Source: Methanocaldococcus indicus
Lineage (GTDB): Archaea; AGJL01; Methanococci; Methanococcales; Methanocaldococcaceae
Direction: 5' to 3'
DNA: 64,000 bases
Assembly (NCBI RefSeq): GCF_049554935.1
Contig: NZ_CP186926.1
Location: 448,001-512,000, forward strand
This document shows positions 10,369 to 25,063 of the stretch, piece by piece. The notes under the pieces are model-generated. The model was given only the letters and a program-made list of their open reading frames with translations, did not search any database and had not been told where the DNA came from. The position numbers were made by a program, and so were the translations under genes. Every line of letters begins with the position of its first letter. Positions within the stretch are counted from its first letter, which is position 1.

Positions 10369-13300
10369 ATGAAGAAAGTTTTTAGCATTTTAAAGGATAT
10401 AGGTATTGATGAGCTTAGACCTCCTCAAAAAAAGGCTATTGATTTAGGAATATCAGATAAAAATAAAAATTTTATAATTTCAATTCCTACAGCATCTGGG
10501 AAGACATTAATTGGGGAAATAGCTTTAATAAACCATCTTTTAGATGAAGACAAGAAACCAACAGGTAGGAAAGGGATTTTTATAGTCCCTTTAAAGGCAT
10601 TAGCTTCTGAAAAATATGAAGATTTCAAAAATAAATATGAAAAATTTGGACTAAGAGTTGCTTTATCTATTGGAGATTATGATGAAGATGAAGATTTAAG
10701 CAACTATCATCTAATAATTACAACTGCTGAAAAACTTGATTCTTTATGGAGGCATAAAATTGATTGGTTAGATGATATATCTATTGTAGTTGTAGATGAG
10801 ATTCACTTAATCAATGATGATACAAGAGGAGGAACATTAGAGATTTTATTAACAAAACTAAAAAATTTAGATGTTCAAATTATTGGCCTATCTGCTACAA
10901 TTGGCAATCCTCATGAATTAGCCAATTGGTTAAATGCTGAACTTCTCTTAGATGATTGGAGACCAATAGAGTTAAAGAAAGGAATTTATAAAAATGGAGA
11001 AATTGAATATATAAATGGGGAAATTAAGAAGATTAATGAAAAAGGAGATGATATATATAAGTTAGTTGTTGATTGTGTAAAAGATGGAGGAAGTTGTTTA
11101 GTTTTTTGCAATACTAAAAGAAATGCTGTTAATGAAGCCAAAAAATTAGATTTAAGAAGATATTTAACAGAAGAAGAAAAAGAGAAATTAAAAAAGATTG
11201 CTAATGAAATACTATCTATTTTAGAGCAGCCAACTGAGTTATGTAAAACATTAGCCAACTGTATTTTAAAAGGAGTAGCTTTCCATCATGCAGGACTAAC
11301 ATATCAGCATAGGAAAATTGTTGAAGAAGCTTTCAGAAAGAGGTTAATTAAAGTTATATGTTGTACTCCAACACTATGTCTAAATGCAAACACTGAAATA
11401 CTGCAGGAGAGTGGATTTAGAAAAATCACAGATTTAAACAAAAATGAAAAAGTTTTTGCACTGTGTGGAAATGAAATAAAACCAATAGATGGTTGGAAAG
11501 TTCATAGAACACCACAACATCCATATAACATTGTTGTAAAAACAGTAAATAGTTTGAAAATTACCACAACTCCAAATCATATATTTTTGGTTAAAGAAAG
11601 TGGTCCTTTAAAAGAAAAGGAAGCAAAAGATTTAAAAGTTGGGGATTATGTAGCAACTGTTGATAGAATAAGAGTTAAGGAGAAAAATATAGGACTATCT
11701 TATGGAGACCTTTACTTTATTGGATACTTTATAGGTGATGGTTATACAGGAGTTATAAAAAAAGATGTATTTAATGGTAGCCCTGACCTTGCATTTAATC
11801 CAAAGTATCCACCAAATTTTGATGATTCTGAACTTCACAAAAAATATTTTTTGAAATGTAGAGTATCTAATGGTGTTGCTCATTATAGGTATTCAAAAAA
11901 ACTAAGAAAACTCTTTAATAAATTAAATTTACTTACAAAAGATAACAAAAATATTGATGTATTTTGTAACCTTACATTGGATAAGCTATCATATCTTATT
12001 GCCGGTTTATTTGATAGTGATGGATATGTAAATTCAAATGCAAAATATATTGAATTTTATTCGATATCTGAAAAGTTGGTCAAACAATTACAATTTGTAT
12101 TGTTAAGATTTGGTATTCATGCCAGTATTAGAAAAAAGAAAACTGAAACTATAACATCTCCAACAAATGGAAAAGAATACAAATGTAAAGATATTTATGT
12201 ATTGTCAATTAGAGATTTTATGAGTATAAAAAGATTTTATGAAAATATTCCATTAAGACATGAAGAGAAGAGAAAAAAATTAGAAAAAATTGTAAAAAGT
12301 AAGGAAATTGCTAAAATATGGTGTGATTGTGGATTTAGTGTTGATTTAACTATGTTTAAACCAAGAACTAAAAGGCAGAGAGAATTAAATAAAAAGCGTG
12401 TAAAATTACTTTTTGAGCTGTTAGATGGGAAAAAGTTAATTACAAACTATGAAGAGTATTTCTCAAAAAGAAAAAATCCACATTTTGAATTTATTGTAAG
12501 AGAAAATGTTGGTGGTAATAAAAAAGGAGTATATTATTCTCTAAATAATAAAGGAAAGATTTTAATGAATCTTCTTAATAAAAATATCGAAAATAAAAAT
12601 AATTTAGATGAGATATATAACTTTTTGGTAAATCTTAAAAATTGCCCGATTTGTGGAAAACCAATTCATAAAGTGATAAGACATAGCTGGAAAAAAGAGT
12701 GCTATGATGGAGACATTTATTGGGATAAAATTAAAGAAATTAAAAAGATAAAAGTAAATGACAAATATGCTTATGATATAGAACTGCCTGATGATGGATT
12801 GAATAGTCATTATATTGTAGCAAATGGATTTATAGTGCATAACTCTGCTGGACTTAATGTTCCATGTAGAAGAGCTATAATAAAAGATTTAAAAAGATAT
12901 ACAAATGAAGGAATGAGATATATTCCAATAATGGAAGTCCAGCAATGCATAGGAAGAGCTGGAAGACCAGGATATGATGAGTATGGAGAAGGAATAATTT
13001 TAGCTAAAAACAATAGAGATTATTTAAGAGCTATTCAAATATTGACTCAAAATCCTGAACCAATATATTCAAAACTCTCCAATCAAGCTATTTTAAGAAC
13101 TCAAATTTTAGGTTTAATAACAACAGGAGAAGTTTTAGATGAGTATGATTTAGAAGAGTTTATTAAAAATACATTTTATGCTCATCAGTTTGGAAATTTA
13201 GATTATGTAATTGAAAATATTAAGGAGGTTATAAGATTTTTAGAAGAGAACAATTTTATAAAAAATTTTGTCCCAACAGAATTAGGAAAAAGAGTTTCTG

Positions 13301-13887
13301 AGTTATATATAGACCCATTATCAGCTAAGTTTATAATAGATGGATTAAAAAAAGATATTAAAGATGAACTCTACTATCTCTATTTAATATCTAAAACTAT
13401 AGAAATGAGACCTTATCTAAGAGTTTATAGGAATGAAGAGTTTGAACTAATCAATGAGATGAGAAATTATAACATTGATTTTATTGAGTATGAGGACTTA
13501 GAGGCTTTTAAGACAGCTAAAATGTTATATGATTGGATTAATGAACTTCCAGAAGACAAAATTTTAGAAAAATATAAGATTGAACCAGGAATTTTGAGGT
13601 ATAAGGTTGAGAATGCAATATGGCTTATGCATGCAGTAAAAGAAATATCTAAAATAATTGGAAAAGATACAGAAATTCCTGAAAAGTTGGAGATAAGATT
13701 GGAGTATGGAGCTAAAGAGGATATAATTGAACTTTTAAAAATAAAACATATAGGTAGAGTAAGAGCAAGAAAGCTATACAATGCAGGTATTAAAAGTGTT
13801 GAAGATATTATAAACAATCCTAAAAAAGTTTCTTCTATAATTGGAGAGAAGATAACTAAAAAGATTTTAGATGAAATTGAATTATAA
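10369..13887 (+). CDS. hel308: Ski2-like ATP-dependent DNA helicase Hel308/Hjm, intein-containing
   Basis: PTASGKT, DEIH, SAT, FHHAGL, TPTL/SAGLN split by intein, GRAGRP, C-terminal HhH IGRVRARKL. Confidence 0.93.
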   Translation: MKKVFSILKDIGIDELRPPQKKAIDLGISDKNKNFIISIPTASGKTLIGEIALINHLLDEDKKPTGRKGIFIVPLKALASEKYEDFKNKYEKFGLRVALSIGDYDEDEDLSNYHLIITTAEKLDSLWRHKIDWLDDISIVVVDEIHLINDDTRGGTLEILLTKLKNLDVQIIGLSATIGNPHELANWLNAELLLDDWRPIELKKGIYKNGEIEYINGEIKKINEKGDDIYKLVVDCVKDGGSCLVFCNTKRNAVNEAKKLDLRRYLTEEEKEKLKKIANEILSILEQPTELCKTLANCILKGVAFHHAGLTYQHRKIVEEAFRKRLIKVICCTPTLCLNANTEILQESGFRKITDLNKNEKVFALCGNEIKPIDGWKVHRTPQHPYNIVVKTVNSLKITTTPNHIFLVKESGPLKEKEAKDLKVGDYVATVDRIRVKEKNIGLSYGDLYFIGYFIGDGYTGVIKKDVFNGSPDLAFNPKYPPNFDDSELHKKYFLKCRVSNGVAHYRYSKKLRKLFNKLNLLTKDNKNIDVFCNLTLDKLSYLIAGLFDSDGYVNSNAKYIEFYSISEKLVKQLQFVLLRFGIHASIRKKKTETITSPTNGKEYKCKDIYVLSIRDFMSIKRFYENIPLRHEEKRKKLEKIVKSKEIAKIWCDCGFSVDLTMFKPRTKRQRELNKKRVKLLFELLDGKKLITNYEEYFSKRKNPHFEFIVRENVGGNKKGVYYSLNNKGKILMNLLNKNIENKNNLDEIYNFLVNLKNCPICGKPIHKVIRHSWKKECYDGDIYWDKIKEIKKIKVNDKYAYDIELPDDGLNSHYIVANGFIVHNSAGLNVPCRRAIIKDLKRYTNEGMRYIPIMEVQQCIGRAGRPGYDEYGEGIILAKNNRDYLRAIQILTQNPEPIYSKLSNQAILRTQILGLITTGEVLDEYDLEEFIKNTFYAHQFGNLDYVIENIKEVIRFLEENNFIKNFVPTELGKRVSELYIDPLSAKFIIDGLKKDIKDELYYLYLISKTIEMRPYLRVYRNEEFELINEMRNYNIDFIEYEDLEAFKTAKMLYDWINELPEDKILEKYKIEPGILRYKVENAIWLMHAVKEISKIIGKDTEIPEKLEIRLEYGAKEDIIELLKIKHIGRVRARKLYNAGIKSVEDIINNPKKVSSIIGEKITKKILDEIEL
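11377..12843 (+). mobile_element. Intein (489 aa) with LAGLIDADG homing endonuclease
   Basis: Begins CLNANT after TPTL, ends IVHN followed by +1 Ser (SAGLN); LAGLIDADG-like FIGYFIGDG and LIAGLFDSDG; TTPNH block B. Confidence 0.93.
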
Positions 13888-15198
13888 AATTTTGAATTTT
13901 CTTTCCCCATCATTTAAAATTGTCCAAATTGGATGATAGATACATTTATAAATTTCTCTTGCAAAATTTAAAAATCCTTCAAATCCAGTAAATGGATAGA
14001 AATCTTGTGGAAATGATAAAAAAGGAATTCCATATTTAACTGCCATATACTTCTCTTTAGTTCCTCCAATAAATATATCAGGTTTTTTATGTTTAAATAT
14101 TAATTCTAAATCTATTTTTGATGCATCATCTACAAAAAGAGTATTGTCTTCTACATTTCTATAAGCCTCTATATAATCTTCCAAATCACCAAATTGTGAG
14201 CCAATAGATATAACTTCCATTCCTAAATCTTTAAAAGCTGATGATAACATACCAATTTTTGAAGCTCCCATAAAAATACCTACTTTTTTTCCATTTAGTT
14301 TTTCTATATAAAAATCTAATTTATCCTTTATCTTTTTAGTTTCATTGTCAATAATCTCTTTTCCAACTTCTTTAATTTTAAAGAATTTAGCTATCTTCAT
14401 TATAGAATCTATTGTATTACTTAAACCTATGAATGAAACATTTAATTTTGGAATTCCATACTTTCTTTCCATATATTCAGCAATATACTTCCCAGTTCTT
14501 TTACAATGCACAAGATTTAACTTAGCATTTTTAGCATTTTTTATATCTTCAACAGAACAATCTCCTGTAAATGTTGCTATAACTTCAATTCCCATCTTAT
14601 TTAATATATCCTTAATTACTCTTGTTTCATTACTAATATTATATTCACCAATAATATTAACTGTGAGCTTGTCTCTAAATTCATCTTTAAATTCTCCTTT
14701 ATCTATTAATTTAAATATTGAAATTATTGCAATTTCATGACCTTTTGATTGATGATATCCACAAAATCCAGGACAAAATATAGGAATCACTGGAATATTT
14801 AAAGATTTTTCAGCATCTTCACATATCTTTTTGATATTATCTCCAATTAGAGAAGATACACATGTCGCATAAACAAATATAGTATCTCCTTTTAGTTCAT
14901 TATAAGCTTCTATTATTGTATCATAAAGTTTTTTTTCACAACCATATATTACATCAATAGTTTCCATATCAGTAGATACAATATTATATGATTTTTTTCT
15001 TACATTTTGGCCATAAAATGCACATCCAATAGGAGAATGAATTATATGAATAGTATTTTTTATTGGAGCTAATATCCATCTTACTCCATAATATGGACAA
15101 CTCCTTTGTGTAATACTTCCAGGAGAAGACTTTTTATTTGTTGTAGGAAGTCCATATTTTTTTAAAGTAATTTTATAAGGAAGGACTCTTATTTTCAT
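13882..15198 (-). CDS. nifE: Nitrogenase cofactor scaffold NifE-like alpha subunit
   Basis: QRSCPYYG, HSPIGCA, YATCV, IIGEYNI, LVHCKR; lacks the FeMoco His ligand segment of NifD. Confidence 0.85.
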   Translation of the reverse strand: MKIRVLPYKITLKKYGLPTTNKKSSPGSITQRSCPYYGVRWILAPIKNTIHIIHSPIGCAFYGQNVRKKSYNIVSTDMETIDVIYGCEKKLYDTIIEAYNELKGDTIFVYATCVSSLIGDNIKKICEDAEKSLNIPVIPIFCPGFCGYHQSKGHEIAIISIFKLIDKGEFKDEFRDKLTVNIIGEYNISNETRVIKDILNKMGIEVIATFTGDCSVEDIKNAKNAKLNLVHCKRTGKYIAEYMERKYGIPKLNVSFIGLSNTIDSIMKIAKFFKIKEVGKEIIDNETKKIKDKLDFYIEKLNGKKVGIFMGASKIGMLSSAFKDLGMEVISIGSQFGDLEDYIEAYRNVEDNTLFVDDASKIDLELIFKHKKPDIFIGGTKEKYMAVKYGIPFLSFPQDFYPFTGFEGFLNFAREIYKCIYHPIWTILNDGERKFKIL

Positions 15199-15833
15199 AC
15201 TATCTCCTTTTTTAATATGTTTATTAACAAACTGTAATCTTTAAAATTCTCATCAGGAGGATGTAAAATATACAAAGAACCATTTTTGAATATTTTAATA
15301 CCTAAAATATCTCCTTCATTATTGAGAAGTATTGGCCTGTAATCAAGATATTCATAATCACAAATTAATGATAATGTATCTACCAATCCTAACTTACCAT
15401 TTTCATCATTAACTTCATATATATGGGAATATTCCTTAATCAGCTCAGAATATGTTGGTAATTCATTGGATATAATATCAGTTCCCTCCTTATCTTTAAC
15501 AACAAATGTGTCTCTAACTAAATGTTTCATTAAGTAGTGTTCCATAATTCTGCCTTTTGAGATATTTTTGAAATATGGGTCAATAACTACAACATTTGAG
15601 CCATTTTCTAATATTTCCTTTATTTTTATGTCTTTTAGTATTGTAATAACACTTGATTGATTTGCTGAATAAGAACTTAAATTTTTAAAAAATAGGGGCA
15701 TATACACAATAGTTAAATCATATTTTGCAATATCTATTTGGTTAAATGGTATGAATAAACAATCTTCAGCATCATAAGAATCCACATTATTAATTTCTTT
15801 TCCTAAGAATAGAACTTTCATATTATTCACCAT
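15195..15833 (-). CDS. Hypothetical protein translationally coupled to nifE
   Basis: 212-aa ORF, 4-bp overlap with nifE start, GGTGA RBS. Confidence 0.7.
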   Translation of the reverse strand: MVNNMKVLFLGKEINNVDSYDAEDCLFIPFNQIDIAKYDLTIVYMPLFFKNLSSYSANQSSVITILKDIKIKEILENGSNVVVIDPYFKNISKGRIMEHYLMKHLVRDTFVVKDKEGTDIISNELPTYSELIKEYSHIYEVNDENGKLGLVDTLSLICDYEYLDYRPILLNNEGDILGIKIFKNGSLYILHPPDENFKDYSLLINILKKEIV

Positions 15834-15836
15834 TTA

Positions 15837-15857
15837 GGAATTAGGTTACCTATTTCC
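15837..15857. promoter_or_regulatory. NrpR-like operator (internal to nif cluster)
   Basis: GGAATTAGGTTACCTATTTCC: palindrome containing GGAA-N6-TACC; nearly identical to the site at 25097. Confidence 0.65.
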
Positions 15858-15877
15858 AAATTATAAAATAAAAAAAA

Positions 15878-16072
15878 TTACTCTTCTAAGATAATTGCAT
15901 TAGTAGGACAAACATCTTTACAAACTCCACAAAGAGTACATTCTTCTTCTCTTGCTACAACTACTTTATCTCCTTGAATTTCAAAAACTTCCATAGGACA
16001 GTTATTTACACATTCTGCACAATCTGGACCTCTGCATAAGTCATAGTTTATTTGTATAACCAACAATACCAC
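15878..16072 (-). CDS. 2[4Fe-4S] ferredoxin
   Basis: CRGPDCAECVNNCP and CTLCGVCKDVCP. Confidence 0.9.
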   Translation of the reverse strand: MVLLVIQINYDLCRGPDCAECVNNCPMEVFEIQGDKVVVAREEECTLCGVCKDVCPTNAIILEE

Positions 16073-16331
16073 CTAATGAGAATCTAATTTTCAAAGCAAT
16101 CATTTTTAGAATGTTAATGAATCTGTCCAAATTTAAATTAATATGTATATAGTTAAAGTCATAAGGAATGTCATAGGAATTATAAACCATTATTCTGTCT
16201 CCTTTCTTTATATTATTAGGAACTGGAACATTTATTTCTCTAACTACACCATCTATTTCAATTAGGGGAACTTTTAAATTATTATTTACAATTTTAAATC
16301 CTCTAAATGTCCCAATTTTACCATAACACAT
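16041..16331 (-). CDS. Divergent HypC/HupF-like small protein
   Basis: N-terminal MC; IEIDGVVREI and IKKGDRIMV resemble HypC VDFGGVKREV and VKVGDYVLV. Confidence 0.5.
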   Translation of the reverse strand: MCYGKIGTFRGFKIVNNNLKVPLIEIDGVVREINVPVPNNIKKGDRIMVYNSYDIPYDFNYIHINLNLDRFINILKMIALKIRFSLGGIVGYTNKL

Positions 16332-16333
16332 AA

Positions 16334-16663
16334 TTACTCACTCTCCCTAACTTTAAATAACCAATCTATATTATATTTTTTTAATTCATCTTTTATAAAT
16401 TCTATTATATCATCTGGAACTCCATATTTTTTCAGGTCTTCTACATTTTCAAGTTCTTCAGGTTTTCCATATCCACTTTCTATCTCATCTATTAAATATT
16501 TAGCAACTATCCCAGGAATATTTTTAACTTTCACTGCTTCAAAAAGTATAGAATTCTCATGAGGAATTTTATCTTCCTTTATGTAGAATACTATACAATG
16601 GAAATCATCACCTTCAACAATATTCCCATATTCATCATATTTCTTAAATTCAACTATCATCAT
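16334..16663 (-). CDS. Hypothetical acidic protein directly downstream of nifK
   Basis: 109-aa ORF 1 bp from nifK stop; GTGA RBS overlaps the nifK stop. Confidence 0.7.
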   Translation of the reverse strand: MMIVEFKKYDEYGNIVEGDDFHCIVFYIKEDKIPHENSILFEAVKVKNIPGIVAKYLIDEIESGYGKPEELENVEDLKKYGVPDDIIEFIKDELKKYNIDWLFKVRESE

Positions 16664-16664
16664 A

Positions 16665-18059
16665 TCACTGTTGTTTTTGGTCCCATGGTATTTGTGTATC
16701 TAATATAGTATTAACTATATCATCAAATAATCTTAAACTACCCATATATCCAACTATTGGCCATCTAAAATGCCCTACTCTATCATAAATTGGAAATCCT
16801 ACTCTTACTAAACCAATATTTAAGTCATCTGCTAACCTTTTTCCACCTCTTGGATGACCAATTAATAAATCAACTCCTATCTTTTTAACAGATTTTTCAA
16901 AGTCCCATAAATCAGAATATTGCACTTCTATGTCTATATTATATTTTTCTGCTATCTTTTCCATATCTTTTTTGTAAGTTGTAGATGGAGTTTGAGTATT
17001 TACAACTACTGGTTTTAGTCCCATCTCACATGCAAATCTTGATAATGCAACTACAAAATCTGGGTCTCCAAATATTCCAACCTTCTTGTCCATTGTATAA
17101 TGTACTGTATCAACAATTGCATCTATTAATTTACCTCTTTCATCTAACAATTTATCAGGAATGTCTAATCCAGTTATCTTTGCAATATTGATAATAAACT
17201 CATCAGTATTCTCTATCCCTATTGGTAATCCATAATATACAGGAATTTTGTATCTTCTTTGTAAGAATAAAGCTCCTCCACCTCCAGCATGTCTGCATAA
17301 TACAAATATTGCCTTAGCATTTATTAACTCTTCAAATTCTTCAACTTTTGTTCCACCTTTTGGATAATATGGAACCTCTTTTATTGGCTCTCTTAAAGGT
17401 TGATATAAGGTCTCTGAAATATCAAATAAAACTGAATAATCTTTTCCTTCTTTTAATTCAAACATTTCAAATATTCTTTTTATTTCTAAAATGTCTCCAG
17501 GATTTACTCCAAATCCAGGAACTATAAATATTTTCCCATCTTTATCTTCATCTCTTTTTTTTCCAGCTGTAAAGTATTGGAAGAATGCTTTAACAGCATT
17601 ATCATATCCTTTTACATGACTTGATTGATATGATGGACAATGAACTGGAATTATTGGCAGTTTTGCTTTTTCTTCTCCAAATTCTTTAGCTATCTTCTTC
17701 CTAGCAGCTCTAATAAATGCTTCTATGTCATCTCCAATTGTTTCAGAGGAACATGTTGTAACAACTGAAATTAAATCTGGATCATATCTTGCTACTAAAT
17801 TTCTAATTCCCTCAACTAAATTCCTCATTCCTCCATATACTGCTGCATCTTCATGAAATGATGCAACTGCAATAGTTGCTGGTTCTCTAAAATGTCTATT
17901 AAATGTATATCTTACATAAGTACAACAACCTTGAGAACCTTGAACAAAAGGAATTCCCCTATGAACTCCTAAGGTTGCCCACATTGCACCAATTGGTTGG
18001 CATGTTTTGTTTGGGTTTATAGTCCCTGCTCTCTGTTTTTCAACATAAGTAATTCCCAT
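16665..18059 (-). CDS. nifK: Nitrogenase catalytic component beta chain
   Basis: INPNKTCQPIGA, QGSQGCC, TTCSSETIGDD, SHVKGYDN, GFPIYDR; start MGITYV after GGTGA. Confidence 0.95.
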   Translation of the reverse strand: MGITYVEKQRAGTINPNKTCQPIGAMWATLGVHRGIPFVQGSQGCCTYVRYTFNRHFREPATIAVASFHEDAAVYGGMRNLVEGIRNLVARYDPDLISVVTTCSSETIGDDIEAFIRAARKKIAKEFGEEKAKLPIIPVHCPSYQSSHVKGYDNAVKAFFQYFTAGKKRDEDKDGKIFIVPGFGVNPGDILEIKRIFEMFELKEGKDYSVLFDISETLYQPLREPIKEVPYYPKGGTKVEEFEELINAKAIFVLCRHAGGGGALFLQRRYKIPVYYGLPIGIENTDEFIINIAKITGLDIPDKLLDERGKLIDAIVDTVHYTMDKKVGIFGDPDFVVALSRFACEMGLKPVVVNTQTPSTTYKKDMEKIAEKYNIDIEVQYSDLWDFEKSVKKIGVDLLIGHPRGGKRLADDLNIGLVRVGFPIYDRVGHFRWPIVGYMGSLRLFDDIVNTILDTQIPWDQKQQ

Positions 18060-18081
18060 AAATATCACCAAAAAATTAAAT

Positions 18082-19512
18082 TTAAGAATTTTTCTTAAAT
18101 TCTTTGAATTTTTCTTCACCTTCTTTTAAAATATTCCAAATTGGATGATAAACTGCTTTATAAATATCTCTTGCAAAATTAACAAATCCTTTGAAGCATG
18201 CATAGGGTCCTTGTTCATAACTGTGAGAGTTAATTGTTGGAACTCCATACTTTCTAAATAAATATCTCTCTTTCAATCCTGTAAGCATGAAATCTGGTTT
18301 GTATTTAGCCACTGCTTCCTCTAATTCTAATTCATTTGGAGCATCAATAACCAAAGTTCCTTTTAGTCCAGCCTTTTTTAAGTTTTTATTCAACTTTTCA
18401 TAATCATCTTCATGTGCAAATGTACAACATGCTACTACAACATCTATTCCCAACTCTTTCATAACTCTAATCCAATGCCATGTTCTTGGACCTCCAACAT
18501 AAATTAGACATCTTTTTCCTTCTAATTTAGATTTATAAAACTCTAATTGTGGCTTAATAGCTTCTAATTCTTCTTCTATAACTTTCTCTACCCTATCCAT
18601 TGGAATTCCTAATACTTCGGCAGTTTTTCTTAAAGCCTCAGCTGTTTGTTCTATTCCAAAGAGTGAAACCCAAATTTTTGGAATATTGAAGCCATCTTCT
18701 ATCAATTCAGCAATATAGTTGGCAGACCTTTGACAATGGACAATATTTAATTTAACATCTGGTAATTTGAATAAATCATCTAATGATGCATTTCCAGTAA
18801 ATACAGCTACAATTCTACATCCAATTTTTTCAAATAACTCTTTTATAACTGCAACATCCCAATCCATATTGTAATCTCCAATTATTGCAACGTCATAAGG
18901 AGTTTTTTCTTCCTCTTTTAAACATTTTTCTGGATATCTTTCTCTTGCTTTTTTTAGCCATCTATAAAATGATATATTAAAGACGTGATGTCCTTTTGAT
19001 TGTGAAACTCCTGCATATCCTGGACAATTACATACAAATACTGGTTTTCCTATTTTTTCTTCTACTTTTCTTGCTACTGCATCTAAATTATCTCCAATTA
19101 GTCCAGAAGTGCATGTAGCATAAATAAAAATACCTTTTGCTTCTGGAAATTCTTTTATAGCTTCTAAACATGCCTTTTCTAATTTCTTTTCACCGCCATA
19201 AACAACATCAGCCTCTTGCATATCTGTTGTAAAGCAGTATCTTCTATGTAGTTCATTGTCTGACAGATTTCTTCTTGTTCCCCATGTGTAATATGCACAT
19301 CCAACTGGTGAATGAACCATATGAATAACATCTTTTACAGGCCCACCTACGACTCCTCTACTTCCTGCAAAGGAACAACCTCTCTCAGTTAAATCTCCTG
19401 GAACTGTTTTAATATTACATGCAGGAATTATTTCCTCCTCTGGGTCATAAATGTAGGTGTGTTTCATTCTTTCAGGGATTGGTTTGTCACAATCTAACAA
19501 AACAAATGGCAT
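18082..19512 (-). CDS. nifD: Nitrogenase catalytic component alpha chain
   Basis: ERGCSFAG, PVGC, ATC P-cluster cysteines; SQSKGHH; HCQRS cofactor Cys; GGPR; NSHSY cofactor His. Confidence 0.95.
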   Translation of the reverse strand: MPFVLLDCDKPIPERMKHTYIYDPEEEIIPACNIKTVPGDLTERGCSFAGSRGVVGGPVKDVIHMVHSPVGCAYYTWGTRRNLSDNELHRRYCFTTDMQEADVVYGGEKKLEKACLEAIKEFPEAKGIFIYATCTSGLIGDNLDAVARKVEEKIGKPVFVCNCPGYAGVSQSKGHHVFNISFYRWLKKARERYPEKCLKEEEKTPYDVAIIGDYNMDWDVAVIKELFEKIGCRIVAVFTGNASLDDLFKLPDVKLNIVHCQRSANYIAELIEDGFNIPKIWVSLFGIEQTAEALRKTAEVLGIPMDRVEKVIEEELEAIKPQLEFYKSKLEGKRCLIYVGGPRTWHWIRVMKELGIDVVVACCTFAHEDDYEKLNKNLKKAGLKGTLVIDAPNELELEEAVAKYKPDFMLTGLKERYLFRKYGVPTINSHSYEQGPYACFKGFVNFARDIYKAVYHPIWNILKEGEEKFKEFKKNS

Positions 19513-19540: not shown

Positions 19541-19927
19541 TTAATTTCCTATAGCTTCTTCTCCAAATTCTCCAGTTCTAATTCTAATAGCTTCTTCTGT
19601 AGGTATAACAAATATTTTTCCATCACCTGGCTTTCCTGTCCTGTTTATTTTTGTTATAATGCCTATAACCAATGGAACATCTTCATCATTTACTACAATT
19701 GATAACATTCTTTTTGGAATATATTTTATTTTTAGCCCTAATTTTTCACCTTCTTCTATTATTTTTTCTTTATCAATTCCTTCTGGAAGATATGCATCAA
19801 TATAACCTTTTTCTTTTCCTCTACCAAAACATTTAATAATCGTTAAAGCAGGAAATCCAACAGCTTCAAGTGCTTTAACTGTCTGAGATACTTTATTAGG
19901 TCTAATAATTGCTAAAATTTCTTTCAT
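19541..19927 (-). CDS. nifI2: PII-like nitrogenase regulator NifI2
   Basis: MKEILAIIRP, GRGKEKG, GDGKIFV, IRIRTGE; between nifI1 and nifD. Confidence 0.92.
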   Translation of the reverse strand: MKEILAIIRPNKVSQTVKALEAVGFPALTIIKCFGRGKEKGYIDAYLPEGIDKEKIIEEGEKLGLKIKYIPKRMLSIVVNDEDVPLVIGIITKINRTGKPGDGKIFVIPTEEAIRIRTGEFGEEAIGN

Positions 19928-19931
19928 TTTC

Positions 19932-20249
19932 TCACAACTCTTTACTTCCAGTTCTTATAGTATAGACCTCATCAATTGGCTGTATGAAAATTTTTCCATC
20001 TCCATAATTTCCAGTGTGTGCATTAGTTTTTATAATATTAACAACTTCATCAACTTCATCATCATTAACACCAATCAGCAACAAAGTTTTTGGAAGTTCA
20101 TCATAAAATATCTCTCCAATTTTTATTCCCCCTTGTTTTCCTCTACCAACAACATCAATCTTTGTAAATGATGGATATCCTGCTTTTTCTAAGGCATCTA
20201 TTACATCATCAGTTTTTTCAGGCCTGATAATAGCTTTTATTAGTTTCAA
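19932..20249 (-). CDS. nifI1: PII-like nitrogenase regulator NifI1
   Basis: AIIRPEK, VVGRGKQGG, YDELPK, GDGKIF; TTG start at 20249 after GGTGA (105 aa). Confidence 0.92.
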   Translation of the reverse strand: MKLIKAIIRPEKTDDVIDALEKAGYPSFTKIDVVGRGKQGGIKIGEIFYDELPKTLLLIGVNDDEVDEVVNIIKTNAHTGNYGDGKIFIQPIDEVYTIRTGSKEL

Positions 20250-20259
20250 ATTTTCACCT

Positions 20260-21120
<861 letters not shown>

Positions 21121-21146: not shown

Positions 21147-21160
21147 GGAAGCTTATTTCC
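21147..21160. promoter_or_regulatory. NrpR operator of nif operon
   Basis: Perfect GGAA-GCTTAT-TTCC flanked by TA; second near-site AGAA-N6-TTCC at 21213-21226. Confidence 0.85.
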
Positions 21161-24295: not shown

Positions 24296-25063
24296 CTAAA
24301 TGACTTCAAATCCATATTTTTTAAATATCTTCTTTCCATCTGTTATTACAAAATTGTAAAATTTCTCAGCAGCTTCTTTATTTTTAGTTGTGGATAGTAT
24401 TGCTATTGGAATAGTTTTTATAACATTGTATTTTGGAGATATATCAATTATATCCACTTTATCCTTGTTCTCAATTGCATCTGCCCTCCAAACAATTGCA
24501 GCATCTACTTGTTTCTCCATAACATAAAATAAAACTTGCTTTACAGTAGCTCCTTTTACAACTACATTTTTATTGATTTTTTCTGAAATTCCTGGATAAT
24601 CTTTGTCTAACTTTTCAAATATCTTATTAGTTGCTCTACCAATTGCAATATTACTATCTCCTAATGCTATTTTCACACCTGGTTTTGCTAAATCAAGTAT
24701 TGAAGTTATATGTTTTGGATTCCCTTTTTGTACAACAATAACAGGAATATGCTTTGTTATGTTTGTATAGTTCAGAATCATACCTTTCTTTTTTAACTCA
24801 TTTACATAGTATAAAGCCCCTGGCATAAAGATATCTCCACTTTTTGAGCTTAAAATTTGAGAATATAAATATCCACTTCCTGCATAGGTATATTCAACCT
24901 TTATTCCATACTTTTTCTCAAAAAGCTTCCCAATTTCATCCATTGGCTCTTGCATTCCAGCTCCAACATATGCATGTATTACCTCTTTTGAATTTTCTTT
25001 ATTTGTGCATCCACAAATGCTAACTAATAAAAGTATGGGAATAATGATTAGAATTTTTTTCAT
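24296..25063 (-). CDS. modA: Molybdate ABC substrate-binding lipoprotein
   Basis: SICGC lipobox, GAGMQEP, YAGSGYL, VDAAIVW. Confidence 0.88.
   Translation of the reverse strand: MKKILIIIPILLLVSICGCTNKENSKEVIHAYVGAGMQEPMDEIGKLFEKKYGIKVEYTYAGSGYLYSQILSSKSGDIFMPGALYYVNELKKKGMILNYTNITKHIPVIVVQKGNPKHITSILDLAKPGVKIALGDSNIAIGRATNKIFEKLDKDYPGISEKINKNVVVKGATVKQVLFYVMEKQVDAAIVWRADAIENKDKVDIIDISPKYNVIKTIPIAILSTTKNKEAAEKFYNFVITDGKKIFKKYGFEVI

Follow-up and report, generated by a model that had tools for sequence, protein, structure and literature searches.

Some nif clusters have no nifN, and for the earliest-branching nitrogenases this raises the question of how the cofactor matures when NifN is missing. 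Methanocaldococcus sp. FS406-22 is a proven diazotroph without this gene, and three options have been listed for its NifE, namely NifE alone, NifE with the protein Hp4, and NifE combining with NifK (Lie 2022, PMC8809328). Part of the text of Garcia 2020 (PMC7216921) describes an ‘F-Mc’ clade that has nifB and nifE without nifN and proposes a NifE homodimer or homotetramer for it, and a section of a 2026 review mentions NifE without NifN in several organisms. In Lie 2022, and in the same portions of the other two sources, nifE is derived from nifD. Here we describe the nif cluster of Methanocaldococcus indicus, which lies in a stretch of 64,000 nucleotides (nt) (assembly GCF_049554935.1, contig NZ_CP186926.1, positions 448,001-512,000; called the window below, and its coordinates are used throughout) and contains a lone nifE-like gene whose product, NifE, ends much like NifD.

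A preliminary description of the window had stated that some deep-branching clusters lack nifN, as the papers above bear out. It had proposed that NifE keeps a NifD-like C-terminus as a docking surface for NifK and assembles into NifE2K2, a scaffold that would stand in for NifEN, and it had named local gene conversion as the alternative. The reading that we consider probable is that the locus is a minimal nif cluster without nifN in which the likeness of the two C-termini combines an old conserved helix with a tail converted from nifD to nifE in this lineage. The locus is a further Methanocaldococcus-type (F-Mc) minimal nif cluster, a type already published, and is an ordinary member of it with a small evolutionary curiosity; to the question of cofactor maturation it adds one more nifN-less cluster and no answer.

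A minimal nif cluster without nifN

As in FS406-22, hp genes and a gene for a ferredoxin (fd) come after nifH-nifI1-nifI2-nifD-nifK, hp4 and nifE form a separate unit in which the end of hp4 and the start of nifE overlap by 4 nt, nifB lies elsewhere in the genome, and nifN is missing. NifE orthologues within the genus are 72-76% identical. The M. indicus cluster differs from that of FS406-22 in the 11-residue nifD-derived tail of NifE and in the overlap of the nifE stop with that of the helicase gene hel308, and no hp3-like open reading frame (ORF) was seen between hp2 and fd, where no homology search was made.

The genome searched comprises 1.44 Mb in 2 contigs and is 99.25% complete. With the Pfam family PF00148 the whole genome gave five matches, four of them to NifK, NifE, NifD and a gene like CfbD and the fifth short of the cut-off, and tblastn with three NifN proteins of relatives found only nifK (283-344 bits), nifE, nifD and the CfbD-like locus, the others having E > 1. 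By these searches nifN is absent not only from the window, as the preliminary description had said, but from elsewhere in the genome, and NifK is the sole beta-type subunit. A nifB-like gene was found outside the cluster (C1:778302-779090; 266.7 bits, below the TIGR01290 cut-off, with model positions 9-280 of 441 matched).

PF00148 genes were surveyed in 40 genomes of the order. Within the genus, each of the five nif-bearing genomes with a completeness of 99% or more had exactly three strong PF00148 genes (nifD, nifK and nifE), and another, G007, which is 86% complete, had one. The two genomes of genus g5 carried D, K and E together with a separate nitrogenase-like pair, and D, K, E and N were all present in genera g2, g3 and g4. 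Lack of nifN is a shared trait of the clade and is already in print. Additional PF00148 pairs (about 404-432 and 471-476 residues) were seen away from nif in G025, G037, G038 and G039 and resemble nitrogenase-like (NFL) pairs; G021-G023 had solely such an NFL-like pair.

Two layers in the C-terminal likeness of NifE and NifD

In the last full 29-residue window NifE and NifD are identical at 21/29 residues and 72/87 bases, whereas the next best non-overlapping window of this size reaches 16/29 and the overall identity is 38% for protein (full length) and 57% for DNA. Both the striking likeness of the C-termini and the greater divergence of the rest, pointed out in the preliminary description, were confirmed by these values. 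The likeness is made of two layers of different age, an 18-residue helix and an 11-residue tail that follows it. The possibility that the tail is an assembly chimera was ruled out, because it differs from nifD at 7/33 bases and is present in two further runs, from another study, whose contigs agree with the window throughout 13852-14118 and depart from it at four positions of 13843-14205, all of them at 14143-14152. Separately, an 83-nt contig (run X3 record 13, depth 54) omits 5 bases at 13873-13880, in the last codons of hel308, and is unlike the window past 13900; it may represent a strain variant or another organism.

A tail of probable nifD origin, private to M. indicus

The tail TILNDGERKFK was found in M. 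indicus NifE alone. In a MAFFT alignment of 11 lone NifEs and 7 NifDs, the 10 other lone NifEs all have a five-residue gap at a place where residues are present in M. indicus NifE and in all seven NifDs, and five of the seven NifD-like states unique to M. indicus NifE lie in the tail. Among 45 NifE-family proteins listed, of which 43 had their C-terminus shown, M. indicus NifE was again the only one with this tail. The other lone NifEs end W-[KRN]-[ML]-[IV]-[EKD]-F-x, whereas M. indicus NifE runs on as TILNDGERKFKIL, colinear with NILKEGEEKFK of NifD. A short form, W-K-[LM]-[MI]-E-F, also occurs in the NifD of genus g2 (WKLMEFEDEE); the long tail belongs to the NifD of g1, g3, g4 and g5.

The tail matches that of its own NifD at 7/11 residues and 26/33 nt (25/30 over the core). 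To see how rare such a match is in this genome, consider that at least 7/11 residues of the NifD tail were matched by just 13 of the 503,099 11-mers in the proteome, NifD itself and the NifE tail included, and that, the tail's own site aside, 26/33 bases of the NifE tail were matched at 2 of 2.87 million genome positions, one of which is the homologous site in nifD. When aligned locally, the 39-nt tail scored 21.5 with the nifD of the same genome, 19.5, 17.5, 16, 15.5, 14 and 11.5 with the nifD of six relatives, and 7.5-11 with the 3' ends and spacers of seven orthologous nifE genes; 3000 random genome segments used as a null gave a mean of 8.6, a standard deviation of 1.7 and a maximum of 16.5. 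In a tree of 38 selected rows, from which the C-terminal region had been removed, M. indicus NifE falls within a 6-row group (Shimodaira-Hasegawa-like approximate likelihood ratio test, SH-aLRT, 99), and no tail is present in its sister group of five rows or in any of the bacterial outgroups. The patch is thus nearer to the paralogue in its own genome than to its orthologues and is derived on the gene tree, and within the tract the two genes match well above background but short of near-identity. At the level of sequence, these comparisons show that the tail is homologous to nifD, that its state is derived and that it is private to the M. indicus genome.

Short-tract ectopic gene conversion between paralogues is a general mechanism. 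In the event that we propose, the 11 residues after the helix would have been copied from nifD to nifE in the M. indicus lineage only, by a short ectopic conversion of about 30 nt. The 5' anchor of the tract would be 15 nt, TATCATCCAATTTGG, that nifE and nifD have in common, and its 3' end would lie at the shared Phe-Lys codons. The conversion would have added the five-residue insertion (xGExK), which among NifEs is seen in M. indicus only, and the tract would since have diverged at seven of its 33 bases. The tract resembles known short-tract ectopic conversions in the closer same-genome paralogue, the identical microhomology flank and the derived state on the gene tree; it differs from them in being very short and already 21% diverged. 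We infer the recombination mechanism and its direction, as well as the lack of a special role for the tail.

The same end of nifE was remodelled in a further respect. The spacer between nifE and hel308, about 120 nt in G014 and about 35 nt in G006 (both estimated from coordinates), does not exist in M. indicus, where, as noted in the preliminary description, the nifE stop adjoins the convergent helicase gene. The two genes overlap by 6 nt, with the last two sense codons and the stop of nifE on the hel308 stop, and the Hel308 C-terminus is about 10-12 residues shorter than in G014 and G006. Collapse of the spacer and conversion of the tail may stem from one repair event.

Other origins of the tail were weighed against the same data. 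If the tail were ancestral, a remnant of the duplication of nifD from which nifE arose, M. indicus would have retained it and the other lone NifEs would have lost five codons; the descent of nifE from nifD in the literature fits this, as does the short form, which resembles the long form minus five residues, and M. indicus NifE has no firm place within its own 6-row group. However, at least two identical five-codon losses would be required, and more if M. indicus NifE is nested, while the short form also occurs in bacterial lone NifEs and in g2 NifD. Moreover, the tail DNA is closest to its own nifD rather than equidistant from all nifD genes, and a DNA identity of 79% is unexpected for an ancient segment when the synonymous sites of the orthologues are saturated (whole-gene synonymous divergence, dS, 1.1-2.2). 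We regard ancestral retention as very unlikely. Still less credible is a likeness by chance or convergence, either in a Lys/Glu-rich tail of a thermophile or, once the stop codon had been lost, by read-through into what used to be the spacer between nifE and hel308. In favour of this are the AT-rich, low-complexity sequence of the region, the missing spacer, the shortened end of hel308 and the fact that MAFFT can place part of the tail DNA on the G014 and G006 spacers; against this, the orthologous spacers score within the null while nifD scores above all 3000 null segments, 7/11 residues are reached as rarely as given above, and the match lies at exactly the homologous position, right after the common HPIW. 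Ancestral retention, chance similarity and spacer read-through were each rejected on the tree, the genome-wide counts and the alignment scores.

Several points nevertheless weigh against the reading of an old helix with a converted tail. The tree comes from a quick IQ-TREE search and leaves the order inside the 6-row group unsettled; were M. indicus NifE the sister of the remaining five rows, two losses would suffice for ancestral retention. The second genome site with 26/33 bases is unrelated to nifD, and the AT-rich, Lys/Glu-rich composition of the tail inflates chance similarity. The identity of 26/33 (core 25/30) implies that the event is not recent, and the donor may be other than the present nifD. 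The species-level lineage is represented by one genome, which leaves the conversion without a date. For the helix, the contrast of lone with NifN-partnered NifEs given below amounts to about three lineages, and kin are not independent.

A parallel to the proposed conversion was found in G003. Its nifE (locus L012) encodes SPGFAGCSQ, identical to its own NifD (L028), where other lone NifEs have CPGFCGYHQ. The DNA of the segment matches its own nifD at 25/30 nt, as compared with 16-19/30 for three other nifE genes, and includes a shared 14-nt run with a GGC codon that is present at that position in 0/9 other printed sequences. As judged from these sequences, the patch, which sits in the QSKGH region of the cofactor pocket, arose in this sister species by a further micro-conversion from nifD to nifE, independent of the one in M. 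indicus. Taken together with the M. indicus tail, it indicates that nifD/nifE micro-conversion recurs, and such patches are to be masked in nitrogenase phylogenies and ancestral reconstructions.

A conserved helix at the end of NifD and lone NifEs

C-termini were extracted from 8 genome-derived lone NifEs, 7 NifDs and database relatives. An 18-residue helix, GF.NFAR..YK..YHPIW, is common to all lone NifEs and NifDs of the clade; it reads GFLNFAREVYKAIYHPIW or close to it in every lone NifE and GFVNFARDIYKAV[YC]HPIW in every NifD, and the M. indicus NifE helix is identical to that of its own NifD at 14/18 positions. NifE and NifD of the same genome share 10-15/18 helix residues in seven lone genomes and 7-11/18 in nine nifN-bearing genomes, while the overall NifE-NifD identity is equal in the two sets (0.36-0.41). 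The preliminary description had pointed to nifN-bearing organisms as a place where equal C-terminal likeness would matter, and there the helix is the less alike.

If the helix had been homogenized between the two genes, own-genome pairs would be the closer ones. The helix DNA of nifE and nifD agrees at 42.4/54 nt in own-genome pairs (7 pairs) and at 41.9/54 nt in cross-genome pairs (49 pairs), so that concerted evolution was ruled out; pairs that are equally alike within and across genomes indicate that the helix is conserved and not converted. The gene conversion offered as an alternative in the preliminary description is supported for the private, nifD-like and derived tail of 11 residues and not for the helix.

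Relative to two NifN-partnered groups, the 15-residue window in which the lone NifEs are most NifD-like is this C-terminal helix, with 0.73 as compared with 0.40 and 0.48. The second is the QSKGH region, with 0.68 as compared with 0.32 and 0.47, which spans residues 150-165 of NifE and 163-177 of NifD (window ~14700-14750 and ~18980-19025) and holds the equivalents of Gln191 and His195; the lone NifEs have QSKGHE where NifD has QSKGHH and the NifE of genus g2 NKSAGHK. The helix would be the ancestral alpha-subunit helix after the position of the His ligand of the iron-molybdenum (FeMo) cofactor, held almost constant by purifying selection both in NifD and in each lone-type NifE of the clade, and NifN-partnered NifEs would have let it diverge.

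The lone protein as a NifE

NifE scored 391.8 bits against TIGR01283 (nifE; cut-off 505.1), and its best model was the alpha-subunit subfamily TIGR01862 with 417.2 bits (cut-off 486.05), so that it lies below the cut-off in both cases. C34, C59, C113 and C232 of NifE are invariant across 15 lone-type NifEs. Lone NifEs retain the equivalent of Cys275 and the three bridging-cluster cysteines. The position of His442 is Phe in 7/7 aligned lone NifEs. The numbering of Cys275, His442, Gln191 and His195 follows a portion of Howard 2013. An alpha-type protein that keeps the bridging cysteines and the Cys275 equivalent and has lost the His442 ligand corresponds to the functional definition of NifE. It lacks two marks of the catalytic NifD, the His ligand to Mo of the cofactor, where it has Phe, and the GG.R pocket motif, with MGASKIGM in place of GGPRTWHW of NifD.

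The ratio of nonsynonymous to synonymous divergence (dN/dS) of NifE against its orthologues is 0.12-0.24, indicating purifying selection. The dN of nifE is 2-4 times that of nifD and nifK and about equal to that of hp4.

Compared with canonical NifEN (A. vinelandii; PDB 3PDI, 9I0F), M. indicus NifE is alike in being a PF00148 alpha-type subunit with the bridging cysteines and the Cys275 equivalent and without the His442 ligand, and it matches the NifE chain of 3PDI with an E-value of 4.7e-52. It differs in having no NifN partner and in its NifD-like last helix and QSKGH region, and among solved structures its likeness to NifD chains is greater than that to NifE chains. M. indicus NifD itself matches chain A of PDB 9SPZ/9SQ3 with an E-value of 3e-302; part of a preprint (bioRxiv 10.1101/2025.10.10.681579) identifies these entries as the NifDK of M. 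infernus. NifE is 38 residues shorter than the NifD of its own cluster, chiefly at the N-terminus. In the quick tree of 38 rows, the NifEs of g3 and g4, which are NifN-bearing (loci L018, L020 and L034), grouped with NifD (SH-aLRT 99) and not with the remaining NifEs, where possible long-branch attraction was flagged.

Possible partners of NifE

A canonical heterotetramer with NifN has no counterpart in a genome without nifN. For the NifE2K2 scaffold speak NifK as the only beta-type subunit of the genome, the retention in the lone NifE of the three cysteines by which NifD and NifE share a bridging cluster with a beta-type partner, the peak of NifD-likeness at the C-terminal helix, and the higher helix identity in the lone genomes; a combination of NifE with NifK is also among the possibilities in Lie 2022 (PMC8809328). 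However, the tail is private to one genome, and its absence from the 10 other lone NifEs aligned, in a clade that includes the FS406-22 type, means that it is not what permits life without NifN. The second peak of NifD-likeness, QSKGH, is an element of the cofactor pocket, so that the likeness may reflect the cofactor site and not the partner. A contact of the alpha-chain C-terminus with the beta chain is not stated in those portions of the nitrogenase literature that were searched, and the contrast between lone and partnered NifEs involves about three lineages. We consider this reading unlikely, and the claim that a retained docking C-terminus permits it found no support. What the tail seemed to offer, a tempting clue, is removed: it is a private scar of gene conversion and not a conserved docking device. 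A more modest clue is kept, in that the last alpha helix and the QSKGH motif are the regions where nifN-less NifEs stay most NifD-like.

On the other hand, the lone NifE may work without NifK and independently of its C-terminus, as a homodimer or homotetramer (proposed in part of Garcia 2020, PMC7216921) or with Hp4, to which it is translationally coupled (Lie 2022, PMC8809328), a reading to which we give somewhat less than an even chance. Here hp4 overlaps nifE and is found in this clade only, the two genes evolve at similar rates, deletion of hp4 slows the diazotrophic growth of FS406-22 (Lie 2022, PMC8809328), and some members of the family, CfbD among them, are described as single-subunit catalytic components in a section of the 2026 review. 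However, FS406-22 does not strictly depend on Hp4, which is not homologous to NifN (Lie 2022, PMC8809328).

Among 5.8 billion proteins, homologues of Hp4 fell into 8 clusters, each of which comes from Methanocaldococcus or Methanotorris, and the 8 sequences have 62 invariant positions, including an SYSANQ motif, an HPP motif and one invariant Cys. Neither NCBIfam profiles nor the ESM Atlas assigned Hp4 to a family, the nearest named Atlas clusters being weak leads. An AlphaFold2 model from the 8-row alignment had a mean predicted local distance difference test (pLDDT) score of 37.6 and was unusable, and a complex prediction of NifE with Hp4 scored 0.00 with controls that were themselves not folded, so that it weighs neither way.

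The clade-wide NifD-like helix is compatible, as a sequence pattern, with docking to NifK and does not demonstrate it; the helix and QSKGH are equally compatible with a conserved NifD-like cofactor site. Nor is the pairing of NifE with NifK a new idea, since it is in Lie 2022, as the NifE homo-oligomer is in the cited part of Garcia 2020. It is improbable in our view that lone-type NifEs still dock NifK, with the last helix of NifD frozen where NifN is missing and drifting in every NifN-partnered lineage. In that case NifK would be a beta subunit shared by catalysis and cofactor maturation, the helix would be a sequence marker of NifK-using NifEs, and the 3' ends of nifD and nifE would be functionally interchangeable, so that recurrent micro-conversions such as the M. 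indicus tail and the QSKGH patch of G003 would be tolerated.

Organization of the locus

On the minus strand the gene order is nifH-nifI1-nifI2-nifD-nifK-hp1-hp2-fd, then a short AT-rich gap, then hp4-nifE (Table 1). The ORF of fd starts at a GTG within the end of hp2. An NCBIfam search gave no match for hp1 or hp2. The intein of Hel308 is about 490 residues long, and the N- and C-terminal splicing models match residues 337-408 and 800-826.

Table 1 Features of the nif locus and its surroundings in window coordinates
Feature	Position	Strand	Basis or remark
nifH	20260-21114	-	NCBIfam profile, 452 bits, above cut-off
nifI1	19932-20267	-	PII-family protein, profile match
nifI2	19541-19927	-	PII-family protein, profile match
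nifD, 476 residues, likely donor of the tail	18082-19512	-	TIGR01862, 557 bits, above cut-off
NifD C-terminal helix	18136-18189	-	C-terminal alignment
NifD tail NILKEGEEKFK	18103-18135	-	C-terminal alignment
nifK, 484-residue ORF, GTG start	16665-18119	-	377 bits on the nifK model
hp1	16334-16663	-	Named by position after Lie 2022; homologues at relatives' loci
hp2	16041-16331	-	Named by position after Lie 2022; homologues at relatives' loci
Small ferredoxin (fd), 64 residues	15878-16072	-	Two Cys motifs ending in CP
hp4, 212 residues	15195-15833	-	Coordinates; orthologues (64-70% identical) precede nifE at the loci of 7 relatives
Lone nifE-like gene, 438 residues	13882-15198	-	Alpha-type nitrogenase component-1 paralogue
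NifE C-terminal helix, residues 408-425 (GFLNFAREIYKCIYHPIW)	13924-13977	-	Near-invariant among 11 lone NifEs
nifD-derived tail patch, NifE residues 426-436, TILNDGERKFK	13891-13923	-	Private to the M. indicus genome
Palindromic TTATAA, Leu-stop for both nifE and hel308	13882-13887	both strands	Convergent stop overlap
Hel308 helicase, intein-containing	10369-13887	+	Convergent with nifE
GGAA-N6-TTCC site 5' of nifH	21147-21160	.	Exact match to NrpR-operator consensus
GGAA-N6-TTCC sites	21147, 25097, 29714, 32312, 32316, 59001	.	Exact pattern search, window

The pattern GGAA-N6-TTCC, whose letters we take to be the NrpR-operator consensus, occurs exactly six times in the window, with 1.17 expected. 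An NrpR operator has been described for the nif cluster of FS406-22 (Lie 2022, PMC8809328). Before hp4 the M. indicus cluster differs from that of FS406-22 in having just a site with one mismatch to the pattern, GGTAACCTAATTCC, which was spotted by eye. Another of the exact sites precedes a periplasmic-binding-protein gene (24296-25063) at the head of an ATP-binding cassette (ABC) transporter cluster that adjoins nif.

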